From Methanocaldococcus indicus (GTDB lineage: Archaea; AGJL01; Methanococci; Methanococcales; Methanocaldococcaceae): a DNA stretch of 64,000 nucleotides. The stretch spans positions 768,001 to 832,000 of the forward strand of contig NZ_CP186926.1 in NCBI RefSeq assembly GCF_049554935.1, given 5' to 3'. The position numbers and the translations under genes were made by a program. Positions 17,284-42,907 of this stretch are shown here, in pieces; position 1 is the stretch's first letter; each line of letters starts with the position of its first letter. Below the pieces are notes generated by a model. The model searched no databases, was not told where the DNA came from, and was given only the letters and a program-made list of their open reading frames with translations.

Positions 17284-17398
17284 GATTAAGACCTTTTCAA
17301 TATTCTTTGCTTTACAAAGAACAGAAAGTTATATATATTTATAGATTGTATAGTTTAACATAGTAAAGTAAAAAAATTTTCTATCTATGGTGATAGTT

Positions 17399-17620
17399 AT
17401 GAGAATCATAAAAAAATTATTATCAAAAAGAGGGCAAGTATCTATGGAAATAGGTATTTTAGTAGCAGCAGCAGTAGCTGTTGCTGCTATAGCCGCATAT
17501 TTCTACGCTTCTAATGTAAAAGTAGCTGCTGAAAATGCTGGAAAAGGTGCAAATGGTACTATTAACACTTTAACTTCTGCAGCTAATAAAACAGCTGCTA
17601 AAATTGAGAATTTAACCTAA
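17399..17620 (+). CDS. Class III signal peptide protein (type IV pilin-like)
   Basis: KRG/QVSME cleavage motif followed by a hydrophobic helix; strong BRE/TATA at 17322-17337. Confidence 0.9.
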   Translation: MRIIKKLLSKRGQVSMEIGILVAAAVAVAAIAAYFYASNVKVAAENAGKGANGTINTLTSAANKTAAKIENLT

Positions 17621-17662
17621 TTTTTATACTCTATTCTTATTCTTTAGAGAAAAAATAAATAG

Positions 17663-17679
17663 TTATAACAGCTTATAAA
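17663..17679. repeat. 17-bp direct repeat, left copy
   Basis: ttataacagcttataaa is identical to 18824-18840. Confidence 0.92.
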
Positions 17680-17688
17680 TTTTATTAT

Positions 17689-18795
17689 TTACAAAATTCT
17701 TTTTATAGCGTTCCAAATTAGGAAGGATTGAGGTTTAAGGATTCCATCAATAGGATTTAAGAAAAGGATATTCTTTTTAATTAAAAATTCTCTAATTTTT
17801 TTAGGTATTTTTGTATCTTCAACTTCATAATTCTCTTTAAATATTTTCAATGCATCAACAACTTTTTTATAAAAGTCATCATCATTTTCTTCTTTAACAT
17901 CTTCTAAAAAGTATTTTAGTTTTTGAATAGCATCTTTAAGTAAATAATCTAAAATTTCTTTTAATTCTTTATTTTTTAATTCTTGAATTACATAAACTAT
18001 ATCTATTGGCTTTCCACCAACATAAGAATAAATAAGTTCTTTCTCATCATTAGAGAGTTTTTTATTTAAAATCTCTTCAGATAGAAAATCTATAAATTTT
18101 AAAGCAGTTTTTTTATCAAAATCATCTACTAAGATATATTTGGCTCTACCATCCAACATAGCTTCATTATAAACCTTCTCAATAAACAAGCTATCAGAGG
18201 ATAAACAAAAAACATGGCATAGGTGTTTATGCTTAGTTAAGGAAATAAAATAATTAAATAGTTCATAAATCAAAAATCCATTTATTTTTAAATCTCCTAT
18301 TTTTTGCAATTCATCTAATATTATTATTGGTTGCTTTCCTTCTTTTTTAACTTCTAAAAAAATTTTAGTTAGATAATTAAAAACATCATCTGAATTTTTA
18401 TCTTTTAATAATTGGTTTAATAGATTTTTAGGTATTGGTATGCCTGTTAAAACATTAGATGTTATTGAAGCAATGGAAGGAATATCTATAAAGTCAGGGC
18501 TATCTTTAATTAATGGTTTTAAAAGATTTTTTAACCAGTCAAAAAAAGATTTTTTCGGAGTGTATGTTTTAAACAAGATTCTTATGAAATCATCATATCT
18601 TGATATAAATATCTCCCTCAAATCAAAATAAAAAATAACATACTTATCCTTATCTAACCTATTATTAATTATCTCATTTATTAAAGCCGTCTTCCCAGAG
18701 TTTATTGGTCCATATATAAAATATATAAAATTTGGTTCATTCTCTATTATTGAGAGTATCTCTCTTATCTCTTTCTCCCTATTAAAAAATTTCAT
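17689..18795 (-). CDS. Archaeal ATPase (MJ-type STAND/AAA family)
   Basis: MKFFNREKE, Walker A GPINSGKT, Walker B IIILDELQ and GGKP motifs. Confidence 0.92.
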
Positions 18796-18823
18796 ATTTT
18801 TCACCAAAAAAATTTAAAAACTT

Positions 18824-18840
18824 TTATAACAGCTTATAAA
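18824..18840. repeat. 17-bp direct repeat, right copy (last codons and stop of the 18824-19357 gene)
   Basis: ttataacagcttataaa is identical to 17663-17679. Confidence 0.92.
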
Positions 18841-19357
18841 CTCCATTAATTTCAAAAATTTCTCCTTCTTCTAACAATTCCTTTAAGTATTTTTCAAGCT
18901 CTTCATCTGGGATATTTAACATCTCAGACAATTCTAAAAAAGAAACTTCTCCTAAATCTGATATTAGTTTTAGTATTTTCTCTTTTATCTCTTCTGGCTT
19001 TAAAATTTCCACATTATCTAAGTTTTCAGCTTTTTCTATTAAGTATTTTCTTGTTATTTTTATTTCTAAATCTCTCAATTCTATCCAATTTTCATCTCTT
19101 TCTTTATATATTTCTACTTCCAAAAATTTGTCCTCTTCAACTCTTGGCTTTCCTATTACATCATAAATTTTATTTTCCATATCATTGAAGTTTCTTAACT
19201 CTATCCCTTCTAAATAAAATTTTTCATTTTCTTTATACACCTTACCCAAAATCCTGACTCTTCTCAACTTTTTACCTTCTAAAATTAAATAATTATCCAC
19301 TACTGGATTCTCTAAAAATTCATTTGGATATATTTTGTATGCTGTTTCTCTTTTCAT
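18824..19357 (-). CDS. OB-fold plus C-terminal winged-helix protein (RPA2/RPA32-like)
   Basis: KRETAYKI...RRVRILGKV N-terminus and LKELLEEGEIFE wHTH end. Confidence 0.65.
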   Translation of the reverse strand: MKRETAYKIYPNEFLENPVVDNYLILEGKKLRRVRILGKVYKENEKFYLEGIELRNFNDMENKIYDVIGKPRVEEDKFLEVEIYKERDENWIELRDLEIKITRKYLIEKAENLDNVEILKPEEIKEKILKLISDLGEVSFLELSEMLNIPDEELEKYLKELLEEGEIFEINGVYKLL

Positions 19358-19478: not shown

Positions 19479-20153
19479 GTGAATATATACTATAAGATAG
19501 TTGAAGATTTTGGTTTTAGTGTTGAGAAAGATATTGAAAGTGCTAAAATTTTAAATGATTTAGTTGAGAATTTAAAGAACACTATTAGCTTGGAGAAAGT
19601 TAAAAGAATTATTAAAGATAAAGATGTCTATATATTAGGAGCAGGACCTTCAATATTTAAACATAGATATCGCATAAAAAATCCAAATGTTGTGGCAGAT
19701 GGTGCATGTAGAGCATTGTTGGAGATAGGAAAAGTTCCTGATATTATTGTGTCTGATTTAGATGGAGATATAGAAGCTCTTTTAGAGTGTAATAAAAAAG
19801 GTAGTGTTATTTTTGTTCATGCACATGGAGACAATATAGAAAAAATAAAAAAAATTGTTCCTAAATTGAAAAATGTTGTTCCTACACATCAAGTCCCAAA
19901 TTTAAAGTTAGAAAATCTCTATTATTTTGGAGGTTTTACAGATGGAGATAGAGCTTGCTATATCTCATATCATTTAGGTGCTAAAAAACTTATATTGGGT
20001 GGAATGGATTTTGGAGATAAGATAAGTAAGTATTCAAGAAATATCAATAAAGATATAGATTTTGCAGATAAATTTAAAAAAAAGAAATTATATTATGCTA
20101 AATATCTGATTGAACTATTAAGTAAAAAGATAGATATTGAATTTTTGGAATGA
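19479..20153 (+). CDS. mptE: 6-hydroxymethyl-7,8-dihydropterin pyrophosphokinase MptE
   Basis: GAGPS, ADGA, SDLDGD, HAHGDN and GGFTDGDRA motifs. Confidence 0.9.
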   Translation: MNIYYKIVEDFGFSVEKDIESAKILNDLVENLKNTISLEKVKRIIKDKDVYILGAGPSIFKHRYRIKNPNVVADGACRALLEIGKVPDIIVSDLDGDIEALLECNKKGSVIFVHAHGDNIEKIKKIVPKLKNVVPTHQVPNLKLENLYYFGGFTDGDRACYISYHLGAKKLILGGMDFGDKISKYSRNINKDIDFADKFKKKKLYYAKYLIELLSKKIDIEFLE

Positions 20154-20376
20154 AATTATGAAAGATAAAAATGAGTTAGCTAAAATTTTTGAAGAATATT
20201 CTAAAAATATTATTGACTTTAAGCTTTTATCTAAAAGTAGAGAAGCAGAATTTTATGAATTTGAATTTAGAAATGACATAATTAATAAACTTTATAATAA
20301 ATTATATTTACATCAGGTTGAAGCTTTATCTAATCTATATAACAACAAGAATGTTATTGTTACAACTCCCACAGGT

Positions 20377-21078
20377 GAGAGTGTCAAGTTAAGCTTTTAT
20401 TAATAATTGATAAAAAATAATAAAATATGAAGCTCACGATAGAAGTCTTAAAGGAGAGAATCGAAGAGGAGAAGATTTTTAAAAGGAATAAGAAGTCGAT
20501 AGAAGTTAAAATCTTAGCTGGGATTTTGTATTATCTTGGACTATCGTTGAGGAAGGTAAGTTTGTTTCTTTCCCAATTCGAAAGTATAAGCCATGAGTCG
20601 GTTAGGACTTATTATCACAAGATTAAAGATGTTTTAAACGAACCTAAAAGAAAGGAAAGATACGCAATTGCAATCGATGAGACCAAACTAAAGATTGGAA
20701 ATGAAAATATTTACGTATGGTCTGCTATTGATGTTGAATCGAAAGAGTGCTTGGGAGTTTATGTTTCTGAAACAAGAAACTGCCTCGATACTATATTATT
20801 CGTTAAGAGTATATTAAAATTTTGCTCTAATAAGCCGAAGATTTTGGTCGATGGTGGAAGATGGTATCCGTGGGCATTGCAAAGATTGGGTTTAGAATTT
20901 GAAAGAGTCAGATTCGGACTGAGAAATTGTGTAGAAAGCTTTTTCTCACTACTCAAACGAAGAACTAAAGCATTTTATAATAGGTTTCCTAATAACAGCA
21001 AATTCGATACAGTTGTTAGCTGGATTAAAAGTTTCATGATGTTCTACAATTAGTTGAAGTCGTTAACTTGACAGTGTC
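20377..21078 (+). mobile_element. IS6-family insertion sequence, 702 bp
   Basis: Terminal inverted repeats gagagtgtcaagttaa / ttaacttgacagtgtc (14/16 match). Flanking duplication cccacaggt at 20368-20376 and 21079-21087. Confidence 0.95.
20427..21053 (+). CDS. IS6-family DDE transposase
   Basis: IDETKLK, VWSAID, LVDGG.WY and [11 protein letters not shown] motifs. Confidence 0.93.
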
Positions 21079-23650
21079 CCCACAGGTAGTGGAAAAAGTG
21101 AAATTTTTAAGATGTATATATTAGATAGTTTTTTATCAAATCCTGAAAGAAGATACTTACTAATATTTCCTACAAGAGCATTAATTAACAATCAATTTTT
21201 TAAGTTTAAATCTTTATCAAATAAATTATTTGAATTAACAAATAAAAAACTAAAAATAGAGATTTTACATGGAGATATTAGTAGAGAAAAAAAGGAAAAT
21301 ATTGTTTTTGAGAAACCACATGTTATCTTTACAACTCCTGACACTCTACATTTTAGGATTTTAAGATACAATGATAAATATTCATGGTTATTAAAAAATT
21401 TGGACTTGGTTGTTGTAGATGAGCTACACAGTTATAGAGGTTATTTAGGAACTAACTTTCATTATATATTAAAAAGATTAAAGTATGTATGTAAATTAAA
21501 ATATGATAATAATTTCAAATATTTAGCTTTATCTGCTACATTAAGAAATCCTACAAAGTTTTGTAAAGATATGTTTGAAGAAGATTTTATTTTAATAGAT
21601 AAAGATAGCTCTCCATCATATAATAAATATTTAGTTCTTTTCCAACCTAAGAATTATGATAGCAAACAACTAATAAAAGGAATTATTGAAAAGTTAGTTA
21701 ATAAGAATATAAAAACAATTTGCTTTTTTGATAGTAGAATTACAGCTGAAAAGATTAGTAAGATGTTCAGAAATAGTAAATTTAGAGAGCTAATAACTGT
21801 TTATAAAGGAACTCTAACAAAGAATATAAGGAATGAGATAGAAAATCATTTTAATGATTCTAAATATTTATGTTTGTTATCAACAAATGCATTAGAGTTA
21901 GGAATAGATATTGGAGATGTCTCATCAGTTGTCAATTATGGAATTCCAGCAGATGGGATATTTTCTTTAATCCAAAGATTTGGAAGAGCTGGAAGAAAGG
22001 GGGATGCTTTAAATTGTATAGTATTTAAAAAAGATGCATTAGACTTATATTATTTAAAAAATAGCAAAGAACTTTATGAAAAAATAAAAAACAATATTAT
22101 TGAGCATATTCCTATAAATAAAGAAAATGAAATTATTGCAAAGAGACATATACACAACTTAATTTATGAATTAAAAAGAGTAAATATAGATAAAATAAAA
22201 TTGAGTTCTTTTGAGAAAAAAATTATTATAGAGTTGCAAAAAGAAAATAAAATAAAATTTGACATTGAAAATAAAGAACTCTATTCATCTGTTGAGCCAA
22301 AATATTACAACATAAGGACTATTGGAGAAGAAACTTATTATTTAATTTTGAATAGAGAGGATATTAAAAATAAAATAAAATCTTTTGATAATATAAAAGC
22401 TCTTAACCAATATATCAACAACTTAAAAAAAGAAAAGATTATTATTGAGCAGTTATCAAAGGATGACTATTATAGATATCTTCTCCCAGGATATCCTTAT
22501 TATTCAAGAGGTAAAATCTACATTATTTCTGATTATTTTGAATATAACAATATAAAATTTGTATTTGTTGAAGAGTTTGATGGAGATGTTGATTATCAAT
22601 CTAAATATACAAAAGATGTTAAAATAATTCAAAAGAAAGATGAGAAAGAAATAAATAACTTAAAAATATGCTTTGGAAAGTTATTAATAGAGGAGATTTA
22701 TGAAGGATTTGTTGTTAGAGGGAGAGATACAAATAAATATTATGAATATCTTAACAAACTAAAAAATAAAGGATTTTTAAAAGCTAAGATTGAGAAAGGA
22801 AATCCATATTTTATAGTTGTTGCTAATCTAACTAATTATAATGTTGAATCTTTTAAAGAAGAATTATTTAAATTAAAAATTAGAGATATTGATATAAATG
22901 ACAATAATGTGTATATCTCAATTTATGAAATTTATACATTAGATAAGCTTCTTTCTTTTTTAGAAGAGTATAAAATTCCTTTTAAACTATTTGAAACTTT
23001 TGATATCTATATTATCTATGAGAATCCATATATTAAAAAATTTGAAACTGAGGGGATATGGTTAGTATTTCCAGAGGAGATTAAAGAAGTGTGTAATTAT
23101 GAATACAACTATTTTATGGAAAGAATTCCTGAAAAATATAAGGATATTGCAAAAGAACTATATGATAAAATTGATAGAAAAGAGCTATTTTTAAGATATA
23201 GAGGATATACTTCCCACTATATTTTAGAAACTATTAAAAAAAGATTATCTTTTATAAAGGATGAGAAGAAAATAGAAAACATCTCATACTATATCAAAAA
23301 ACTTATAGATAGTAAAGATATAGGTAATGGACTTCATGCAGTTGAACATATATTTATAAAATTAATTCCTACTGAGTGTTTTGTTGATAGTAGAGAAATT
23401 GGAGGATACAGCTACTCTCAATATGAATATCTAAATAAGCCAACTATTTTTGTTTATGATGGTAATGAGGGAGGAATTGGAGTAATTGAAAGAGTATTCC
23501 AAACATCTGAAAAGTTGTTGGAGAAGAGTTATAATCATCTAAAATTATGTAGATGTAAAGATGGATGTCCTTTATGTATATACTCTACTAAATGTGGAAA
23601 TCTAAATGAGTTTTTAGATAAATTCCAGGCAATAAAAATCTTAGAGAAAT

Positions 23651-23905
23651 TTATAAAAATGAAAGAATCAATAAAATAGCTACACCAACAACTCCACCAA
23701 TTGCAACAATCAATAAATTTATCAAATCTAATTTTATGTGTGCTATGCCTAAATAGTTTATTATATATATTAAAATTATACCTACAATTGTATTAATTGC
23801 TAAATGTCTAATTATCTTAAATGTAAATTTAATTATCAAATAAGCTACAACTAAAACCAAAACTAACAATACAATTGTTTCAATCATACTATGCCCTCCA
23901 AACAT
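23651..23905 (-). CDS. BofA-like small membrane protein
   Basis: Three TM segments; INTIVG...IGGVVG pattern. Confidence 0.7.
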   Translation of the reverse strand: MFGGHSMIETIVLLVLVLVVAYLIIKFTFKIIRHLAINTIVGIILIYIINYLGIAHIKLDLINLLIVAIGGVVGVAILLILSFL

Positions 23906-42892: not shown

Positions 42893-42907
42893 AACATTCC
42901 CAAATAG

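Follow-up and report, generated by a model that had tools for sequence, protein, structure and literature searches.

An ATPase gene bracketed by an exact 17-nt repeat of a neighbouring gene's end in Methanocaldococcus indicus: a possible scar of single-gene insertion

Organization of the ATPase locus

We analysed a 64,000-nt stretch of the Methanocaldococcus indicus genome (the window; G000:C1:768001-832000) in which the gene for an archaeal ATPase, ATPase A, lies directly behind the gene for a winged helix-turn-helix (wHTH) protein. An exact 17-nt sequence, TTTATAAGCTGTTATAA, forms the end of the wHTH gene and recurs just past the end of the ATPase gene. This repeat may be the scar of a one-off insertion of the ATPase gene, and chance is a serious rival explanation. 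Coordinates are window positions unless a contig is named, and the locus corresponds to C1:785663-786840. The genome comprises 1.436 Mb on two contigs, with 28% G+C and a completeness of 99.25%. The features of the locus are as follows.

17663..17679, minus strand: 17-mer copy 2, the 'orphan tail'; non-coding, 9 nt past the ATPase stop codon (17689-17691), with a T-rich tract next to it
17680..17688, minus strand: A-rich 9-nt tail, ATAATAAAA, from the ATPase stop to copy 2 (sequence reading)
17689..18795, minus strand: ATPase gene A, 368 amino acids; PF01637 ATPase_2 and PF21690 MJ1010-like C-terminal domain
18796..18823, minus strand: leader of 28 nt with T5 and T7 runs and a GGTGA ribosome-binding site (sequence reading)
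18824..18840, minus strand: 17-mer copy 1; last 5 2/3 codons and stop (VYKLL*) of the wHTH gene
18824..19357, minus strand: upstream wHTH gene, 177 amino acids, with a C-terminal winged-helix domain (Pfam and open reading frame)
17663..17696: extended imperfect repeat, 29/34 with 18824-18857 (repeat search)
17621..17662: T/A-rich spacer from copy 2 to the pilin-like gene, for which a two-way terminator role would be plausible
17387..17620, plus strand: convergent pilin-like gene, 77 amino acids, with a class III signal peptide (open reading frame and profile match)

Sequence reading and a pattern search placed the two exact copies of the 17-mer on the minus strand at a spacing of 1161 nt. The 1144 nt between them (17680-18823) consist of the leader, the ATPase open reading frame (ORF) and the 9-nt tail; a single further ORF of at least 40 amino acids was found there, a 63-amino-acid antisense frame at 18440-18631. 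The start of ATPase A was taken as ATG, as in its paralogues; the mechanical ORF call reaches a TTG within the ribosome-binding site. A preliminary description of this DNA had reported the exact 17-mer at both positions, the second copy 9 nt past the ATPase stop, 1144 bp between the copies, and a cassette holding just a 28-nt leader with GGTGA, the ORF and an A-rich tail, and all of this was confirmed.

The same description had reported neither inverted repeats nor a transposase. The repeat search reported no terminal inverted repeats around the cassette, the sole long inverted pair being the quasi-palindromic 17-mer itself, and the leader and the tail showed no complementarity on sequence reading. 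The statement on transposases is correct for the cassette; outside it, an IS6-family transposase gene lies 1.6 kb off (20427-21053). No Rfam family was matched between 16500 and 20500. There is no tRNA near the site, the nearest being at 42907.

The match between the two copies continues past the 17-mer on the gene-end side only, where 12/17 further nucleotides agree in the repeat search. As the additional 17 nt overlap native terminal codons in the ATPase gene as well as in the wHTH gene, they cannot reflect common descent. They could be a short homeology at which the joint formed.

A TATA-like word, TTTATAAG, lies inside copy 1, which occupies positions -45 to -29 relative to the ATPase start. 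A TATA-like word also precedes the nearest paralogue of A, paralogue B, at a distance from the start similar to that of TTTATAAG, about 45 nt before the ATG of A. The placement of TTTATAAG suggests that ATPase A may have its own promoter within copy 1.

Frequency of the 17-nt repeat

Exact copies of the 17-mer number only two in the 1.44-Mb genome, with one further site at one mismatch and six at two mismatches. The sequence is not a common motif dispersed genome-wide, a possibility raised in the preliminary description. Nine sites with up to three mismatches occur in the window vs 2.6 expected; two of these are the copies themselves and one is a self-overlap. A context model gave 0.009-0.03 copies expected genome-wide.

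For 1,588 mechanical ORFs of at least 100 amino acids, we determined the longest exact word common to the 100 nt upstream and the 100 nt downstream. ATPase A ranked third with its 17 nt. The two longer words (20 and 18 nt) belonged to tandem paralogues at C1:653867-655257, and the ranks below were taken by one word of 14 nt and eight of 13 nt. The 17-mer is the longest non-paralogous flanking repeat among these ORFs and the only one of at least 15 nt.

Expectations by chance varied with the null used. When upstream and downstream flanks were paired without matching, a shared word of at least 17 nt was seen in 317/2,516,982 pairs, corresponding to about 0.20 cases expected per genome; this is an upper bound because the ends of insertion sequences (IS) and pure A/T words are included. 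Gene-terminal 17-mers recurred anywhere in the genome for 74/1,588 ORFs, mostly as rRNA or IS copies. About 25 of the 74 look like chance recurrences by a hand count, and this corresponds to ~0.002 cases per genome in which such a recurrence would fall no more than 100 nt from the stop of the following gene. By our estimate, the genome contains about 35 isolated exact repeats with a length of 17-19 nt whose copies are at most 3 kb apart. Depending on the framing, the probability of a repeat like that at the ATPase locus is roughly 0.002-0.2 per genome, which makes it unusual; the framing was post hoc and the scan very large.

The wHTH gene and ATPase A

The wHTH gene is single-copy here and was found in 39/41 Methanococcales genomes searched. 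Its C-terminus, GVYK[TVIL]L*, is encoded with the same codon pattern in 14/16 genus relatives; two end in GVYKIQ* and one is wholly different. Because the C-terminus is conserved across the genus, copy 1 is native coding sequence. It follows that copy 2 is derived, or that the repeat is a coincidence. Pfam returned only a weak C-terminal HTH_24 match for this protein, leaving the 'OB' label of the preliminary description unconfirmed.

ATPase A is an ordinary, intact member of the ATPase_2/MJ1010-like family and, by family, a P-loop nucleoside triphosphatase with a C-terminal winged-helix-type domain. It matched PF01637 with 250.3 bits (cut-off 33.2; profile 1-225 of 225, E 2.5e-74) and PF21690 with 129.5 bits (cut-off 27; profile 1-91 of 91, E 5.7e-38). 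The translation contains an intact Walker A motif (GPINSGKT) and a Walker B-like motif (IIILDELQ). Residues 277-368 matched PDB entries 3bjo_A (E 5.3e-20) and 3h92_A (E 9.5e-23) and resemble the solved MJ1010 and MJECL15 domains. PADLOC models gave weak partial matches only (PDC-S27, E 1.7e-7 over residues 133-264; mad8, E 3.4e-4), and no relatives were found in viral contigs searched with ATPase A as the query. A literature search on PF01637 in archaea returned nothing related, and one on Methanocaldococcus ATPase paralogues and rearrangement returned nothing specific among the matches listed.

Ancestry of ATPase A

In 5/16 genus loci (G001, G005, G008, G009 and G010), the wHTH gene is followed on the same strand by an ATPase_2 gene at a distance of 1.3-3.3 kb. 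In a quick maximum-likelihood tree of 45 proteins, from which the short rows L064 and L085 were dropped, the three full-length wHTH-linked ATPases (G001, G008 and G009) formed a separate deep clade on a branch of 1.06, with a support of 100 in the Shimodaira-Hasegawa-like approximate likelihood ratio test (SH-aLRT). ATPase A grouped with paralogue B (SH-aLRT 99) and then with G007:C131 and G001:1326k (support 96). The linked ATPase of G009 is 56% identical to A, and the best G009 match to A reaches 73%; in G001, G008 and G009 the nearest relatives of A (71-77%) lie elsewhere in the genome. The linked fragments of G005 and G010 could not be placed, because the N-terminus is 75-84% identical in all paralogues. 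As tree and identity both put A outside the linked clade, A is not the ancestral neighbour of the wHTH gene, and ancestral linkage was rejected for A on these two grounds.

Paralogue B is a pseudogene (C1:1219229-1220131), frameshifted near its C-terminus. A central tract of roughly 700 nt is 100% identical between A and B and lies between diverged 5' and 3' parts, indicating recent gene conversion between these dispersed paralogues. Homology of A and B begins 3 nt past copy 1 and stops at the stop codon, and their 3' flanks are not homologous (score 13 vs a shuffle mean of 14.8). A conserved 3' element of the ATPase was considered and rejected, as the A and B flanks align at shuffle level and inspection showed no obvious motif common to the 3' flanks of 40 paralogues.

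Synteny and the search for an empty site

The wHTH orthologues and their flanks were compared in 16 genus genomes, and neither flank was common to G000. The closest wHTH protein (G003) is 66% identical. In most genus relatives a 385-amino-acid gene precedes the wHTH gene, and a 183-amino-acid gene and others follow it; in G000 these neighbour genes are found at 1,320 kb, 342 kb, 835 kb and 159 kb. The neighbours of the G003 wHTH gene are scattered in G000 too, and the gene has other neighbours in 15 other genus loci. The preliminary description had pointed to an empty site in relatives as a check on insertion. None was found in the 16 genus genomes or in the JGI metagenome contigs, where the exact 27-nt pattern gave 0 matches and a protein-guided scan 0 relatives. 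The loss of synteny on both sides, in a genome rich in IS, prevents an empty site from being read.

Two metagenome runs (X2 and X3) hold a strain that is ~97-99% identical. One contig (run X2, record 4; 17464-17740) continues from copy 2 into the 3' end of the ATPase gene, indicating that the related strain is occupied at the copy-2 junction. Record 11 of run X3 ends 30 nt past copy 2, one short of the bridging threshold. The copy-1 junction was spanned by no piece among the matches listed for these runs. Neither a joint of 17679 to 18841 nor a joint of a circle appears among those matches, which carries no weight for or against excision because rare variants are lost from assembled contigs.

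Gene gains in the ATPase family

The ATPase_2/MJ1010-like family had 1 to 19 matches per genome in 17/17 genus genomes, in keeping with the earlier statement that it is expanded and scattered. That description had also looked to direct repeats and shared ends at the paralogues as marks of a mobile cassette. We scanned the flanks of 42 genus loci (2 of 44 were skipped at contig ends); a flanking repeat was absent from 41/42, and A was the exception. The next longest flank words (15, 12 and 11 nt) were ribosome-binding-site and start words of tandem genes. On inspection, the non-coding ends of the paralogue loci had no obvious common motif beyond the ribosome-binding site.

Junctions of occupied and empty sites were mapped by BLAST for four loci. 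The occupied loci are all from G009, and G008 is occupied at L048, L061 and L083. The junction repeat given for each locus is its longest direct repeat no more than 30 nt from a junction.

L048: occupied 1247 nt; empty 24-38 nt in G001, G015, G011 and G010; longest junction repeat 8 nt
L061: occupied 1235 nt; empty 54-194 nt in G001, G015, G011 and G010; longest junction repeat 6 nt
L070: occupied 1209 nt; empty 9 nt in G008; longest junction repeat 7 nt
L083: occupied 1503 nt; empty 192 nt in G010; longest junction repeat 7 nt

As read from the junction sequences, each of the four inserts comprises a single ATPase gene together with a 5' flank (25-193 nt) and a 3' flank (0-130 nt). The 5' flanks measure 25 nt at L048, 34 nt at L070 and 193 nt at L061. 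Each insert abuts or remodels the stop or start codon of a neighbour and replaces a short native sequence. A duplication longer than 8 nt was found in 0/4 pairs. The family is gained gene by gene at gene boundaries, without target duplications, inverted repeats or fixed ends. The comparison of G016 with G012 gave no clean pair of occupied and empty sites, the flanks lying at rearrangement breakpoints or in dispersed repeats, and at L057 only one flank was found in relatives.

Several other features were observed at these loci. At L061:795-810 in G009, the ATPase gene and its convergent neighbour end in a common palindromic TTATAA, a stop codon for both strands, and this word is present at both insertion junctions of L061. 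A 107-nt element at L070:2074-2180 (G009), which has a G+C hairpin at its centre and terminal inverted repeats of 15 nt, resembles a miniature inverted-repeat transposable element; it is cleanly absent in G008 (L123), and no long duplication of the target is seen. In G016, ATPase paralogues are flanked by short dispersed repeats that have many copies in G012 (L067:1903-2086; L078:628-769 and 2005-2215). The L067 flanks map 110 kb apart and inverted in G012, and ATPase loci therefore coincide with rearrangement breakpoints.

Duplicated gene tails elsewhere in the genome

The last 24 nt of each of 1,579 ORFs were compared with the 3 kb downstream, with the upstream side as a control. Tails reaching at least 20/24 were found for 11/1,579 ORFs vs 6 in the upstream control, and the ATPase locus reached 21/24. 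The cases other than tandem paralogues include three clear sites in G000 at which a working tail is followed by a small insert and an orphan tail.

C1:442404-442602: 57 nt (55/57) around an 85-nt G+C-rich two-hairpin insert; single-copy gene
About 100 nt after C1:499770: 20/24 around a 70-nt G+C-rich hairpin insert; single-copy gene
C1:965777-965881: 33 nt exact around a unique 39-nt insert, just before cas1

No second genome copy of the 442-kb insert was found by blastn. The 33-nt repeat before cas1 spans the stop of one gene and the ribosome-binding site and start of cas1. The unit resembles a repeat-spacer-repeat and may have arisen by off-target spacer integration.

The orphan-tail layout was also seen at the 3' ends of ATPase genes, namely at L063, L074 and L080 (G008 and G009) and at paralogue C (G000:C1:249755-249835). 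A hairpin cassette at these four loci supplies a new ...LLNGH stop, and the gene's own last codons are left as the orphan. The duplicated tail at L080 is 38 nt exact. In G004, G006, G008, G009 and G015, the core of the LLNGH hairpin cassette was found a short way upstream of the wHTH gene as well.

Exact direct repeats of 35 nt and 36 nt were observed upstream of the gene pairs C1:692645/694272 and C1:1099115/1102033, the second pair being lipoprotein-like. They probably represent promoter or operator sequence common to both genes of a pair and not the scars of insertions.

Recombination machinery and activity

An IS6-family element is present in 16 genome copies with 97-100% identity, and its ends (GAGAGTGTCAAGTTAAG) are unrelated to the ends of the cassette. 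The copy at 20377-21086 (NCBIfam transpos_IS6, E 4e-42, for the transposase ORF at 20427-21053) splits a helicase-like gene, whose parts are the flanking ORFs 20137-20403 and 21112-23679. The scrambled gene order of G000 fits the presence of these 16 copies. Together with the 100%-identical A/B tract, they mark the genome as recombination-active.

Reverse transcriptase (PF00078, RVT_1) gave 0 matches in the genome; the same search was positive in 3/14 genomes that served as a control. Three tyrosine recombinases (PF00589) were found, at C1:878618, C1:900305 and C2:11782, the last on a 22-kb contig, and the nearest is 92 kb away. The single Cas1 (C1:965895-966704) lies 179 kb from the locus. 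The co-occurrence of integrases, Cas1-like or reverse transcriptase genes suggested in the preliminary description was therefore not borne out, with no reverse transcriptase and with integrases and Cas1 at least 92 kb off or on the small contig.

Discussion

We favour the explanation that an ATPase paralogue was inserted behind the wHTH gene in a one-off event, joined out of register at short homology, which left an orphan 17-nt tail, and we give this explanation about an even chance of being correct. The insertion would have taken place in the lineage of this IS-rich, heavily rearranged genome. A single-gene unit made up of the ATPase ORF, about 25 nt of its leader and the 9 nt past its stop would have been placed directly behind the wHTH stop codon. 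The joining would have been illegitimate and out of register, guided at most by the short imperfect homology of two A/T-rich gene ends. The host wHTH gene would have kept a working end, and its last 17 bases would be present once more, as an orphan, on the far side of the insert. No element-encoded or dedicated machinery would have taken part. We infer both that copy 2 originated in the insertion event and that recombination was the mechanism. Such joining resembles homology-facilitated or microhomology-mediated illegitimate recombination, as defined in PMC3240628.

Homeology-guided joining is favoured over a clean staggered cut because the similarity extends imperfectly (12/17) and on the gene-end side only. 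The preliminary description had proposed a minimal mobile cassette inserted by a staggered cut or by short homology at a gene 3' end. The gain of a single gene stands, and short homology is the better fit; a dedicated cassette and a staggered cut do not agree with the 0/4 pairs with duplications above 8 nt or the 41/42 loci that lack a repeat.

Several observations weigh against the insertion that we favour. As no pre-insertion allele was found in the 16 genus genomes, the event is reconstructed rather than seen. A donor locus with matching flanks was not found either, and B, the nearest paralogue, has no common 3' flank. Where the proposed homeology adjoins the exact 17-mer, at its 3' end, the two sequences read AAAA and GGAG, a poor match for a primer. 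Locus A is like neither of the sets used for comparison: no duplication accompanies the four clean gains of a gene, and the other orphan-tail inserts are small hairpins, not genes, with longer duplications (24-57 nt). Finally, the test was framed post hoc and the scan reads very many windows, and chance is thus a serious rival, if a somewhat unlikely one.

Under coincidence, the 17-mer would recur by chance in a genome of 28% G+C, where TTATAA-type words are frequent at gene ends, and the ATPase would have arrived there, or would always have lain there, without a duplication, as at the 41 other paralogue loci and the four pairs of occupied and empty sites. The unmatched flank-pair null allows up to 0.2 cases per genome, the genome holds an estimated 35 or so isolated exact repeats of this kind of length (17-19 nt, copies at most 3 kb apart), the remaining sites in the window with up to three mismatches show no strong motif, and the finding was picked from a very large scan. 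However, the word is fairly complex, with 0.009-0.03 copies expected genome-wide, and gene-terminal 17-mers would give ~0.002 chance placements per genome. The repeat extends to 29/34 and is the only non-paralogous flanking repeat of at least 15 nt among the 1,588 ORFs. We consider a chance origin somewhat unlikely on this evidence, though it is the main rival. A dedicated system is a different matter. Minimal ATPase cassettes might be moved in trans by an undescribed long-stagger integration at gene 3' ends, with the 17-mer as the target-site duplication. The single-gene gains of family members at gene boundaries, the 1 to 19 copies per genome, the copies on a small extra contig (G009:C2), the long gene-tail duplications around small inserts in G000 and its relatives, and a segment between the repeats that is almost exactly the A/B homology unit would all agree with such a system. 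It is nevertheless improbable, given that 0/4 pairs carry a duplication above 8 nt and that insert boundaries vary, that 41/42 loci lack flanking repeats, that no terminal inverted repeats were reported and paralogue flanks have no common ends beyond the ribosome-binding site, that the genome has no RVT_1 and its tyrosine recombinases and Cas1 are distant, and that viral contigs gave no relatives with the ATPase A query.

Two further explanations were weighed. Under ancestral linkage, an ATPase_2 gene would always have stood downstream of the wHTH gene, intervening genes would have been lost or moved, and the repeat would be unrelated to the arrival of the ATPase. The downstream, same-strand ATPase_2 genes in 5/16 genus loci are what this predicts, but the three full-length linked ATPases belong to a deep separate clade (56% identical to A), the nearest relatives of A (71-77%) lie elsewhere in those genomes, and the G005 and G010 fragments can be assigned to no clade. 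The intervening genes survive at three different places in G000, so that several events would be needed, and the repeat is left unexplained. We regard this history as very improbable. Site-specific integration would make the 17-mers the attL and attR cores of a tyrosine recombinase that integrated a small ATPase-bearing circle. A direct repeat that rebuilds the 3' end of a target gene, as here, is the classic integrase signature, and the genome has three tyrosine recombinases, one on the 22-kb contig. Yet no integrase lies in or beside the insert and the nearest is 92 kb off, the 17-mer occurs nowhere else in the genome, the small contig included, no tRNA is at the site (nearest at 42907), the insert is a single 1.1-kb gene, and the other insertions of the family have no att-like repeats; we consider such integration the least credible of the explanations.

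Among known processes, homology-facilitated illegitimate recombination inserts foreign or paralogous DNA without element enzymes, and its junctions lie at short imperfect homologies. A short recipient sequence is lost, replaced or duplicated, and a homologous anchor is needed on one side. To our knowledge, experimental evidence for it comes from transformable bacteria and E. coli and does not include Methanococcales. This process agrees with the 29/34 extension at locus A and with the way in which boundaries vary at L048, L061, L070 and L083. No homologous anchor was identified for the insert described here. The orphan-tail hairpins offer another comparison. Palindromic hairpins of Methanocaldococcus, the MJRE elements, were reportedly described by Suyama, Lathe and Bork in FEBS Lett in 2005. 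The hairpin elements with duplicated tails have in common with locus A that an insert, located in the gene end or immediately behind it, separates a working tail from its orphan copy. They differ in being G+C-rich hairpins of 39-110 nt, with duplications of 24-57 nt whose copies frequently differ from each other. The insert at locus A is an entire gene of 1.1 kb without a hairpin, and its tails agree at 17/17 positions.

Enzyme-driven insertion is less similar. Target-site duplications are 2-14 bp for IS elements and 14-15 bp for casposons. As with DNA transposons and casposons, host sequence is directly repeated on both sides of the insert and one boundary is sharp. In contrast, the insert has no terminal inverted repeats and no transposase or Cas1, the single Cas1 being 179 kb away; 17 bp exceeds the known classes, other ATPase copies have no duplication, and the resident IS6-family element is unrelated to the site. 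Integron cassettes are promoter-poor single ORFs with a short leader, and their attC site is an imperfect palindrome with a GTTRRRY core. The single ORF and short leader inserted behind another gene are shared with locus A, but here 9 nt and the 17-mer follow the ORF, with no attC-like palindrome, array or adjacent integrase, and the 17-mer is unlike the GTTRRRY core. Copies retroposed by target-primed reverse transcription have variable duplications of ~15-20 bp, an A-rich 3' tail and an insert about the size of one transcript. The ATPase insert resembles them in all three respects; it differs in that PF00078 was not detected in this 99%-complete genome and that the 9-nt tail is not poly(A) and is unremarkable in 72% A+T DNA.

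It is conceivable, though we think it quite unlikely, that one process at Methanocaldococcus gene 3' ends both makes the hairpin inserts with their duplicated tails of 24-57 nt and moves whole ATPase_2 genes, locus A being the sole gene-sized insert that still has its footprint. If so, the ATPase family would be the cargo of a trans-acting long-stagger or tail-copying insertion without a known enzyme. If the repeat arose by chance, it serves as a calibration: an exact 17-nt repeat that brackets a gene in 28% G+C DNA would by itself be no evidence of mobility.

This archaeal ATPase family is often suspected of roles in conflict or defence. If the 17-mer is an insertion scar, it would be a rare dated footprint of the gene-by-gene spread of a large, fast-turnover archaeal ATPase family without transposon machinery. 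The 17-mer locus and the clean pairs of occupied and empty sites provide concrete loci for illegitimate recombination in polyploid hyperthermophilic methanogens.

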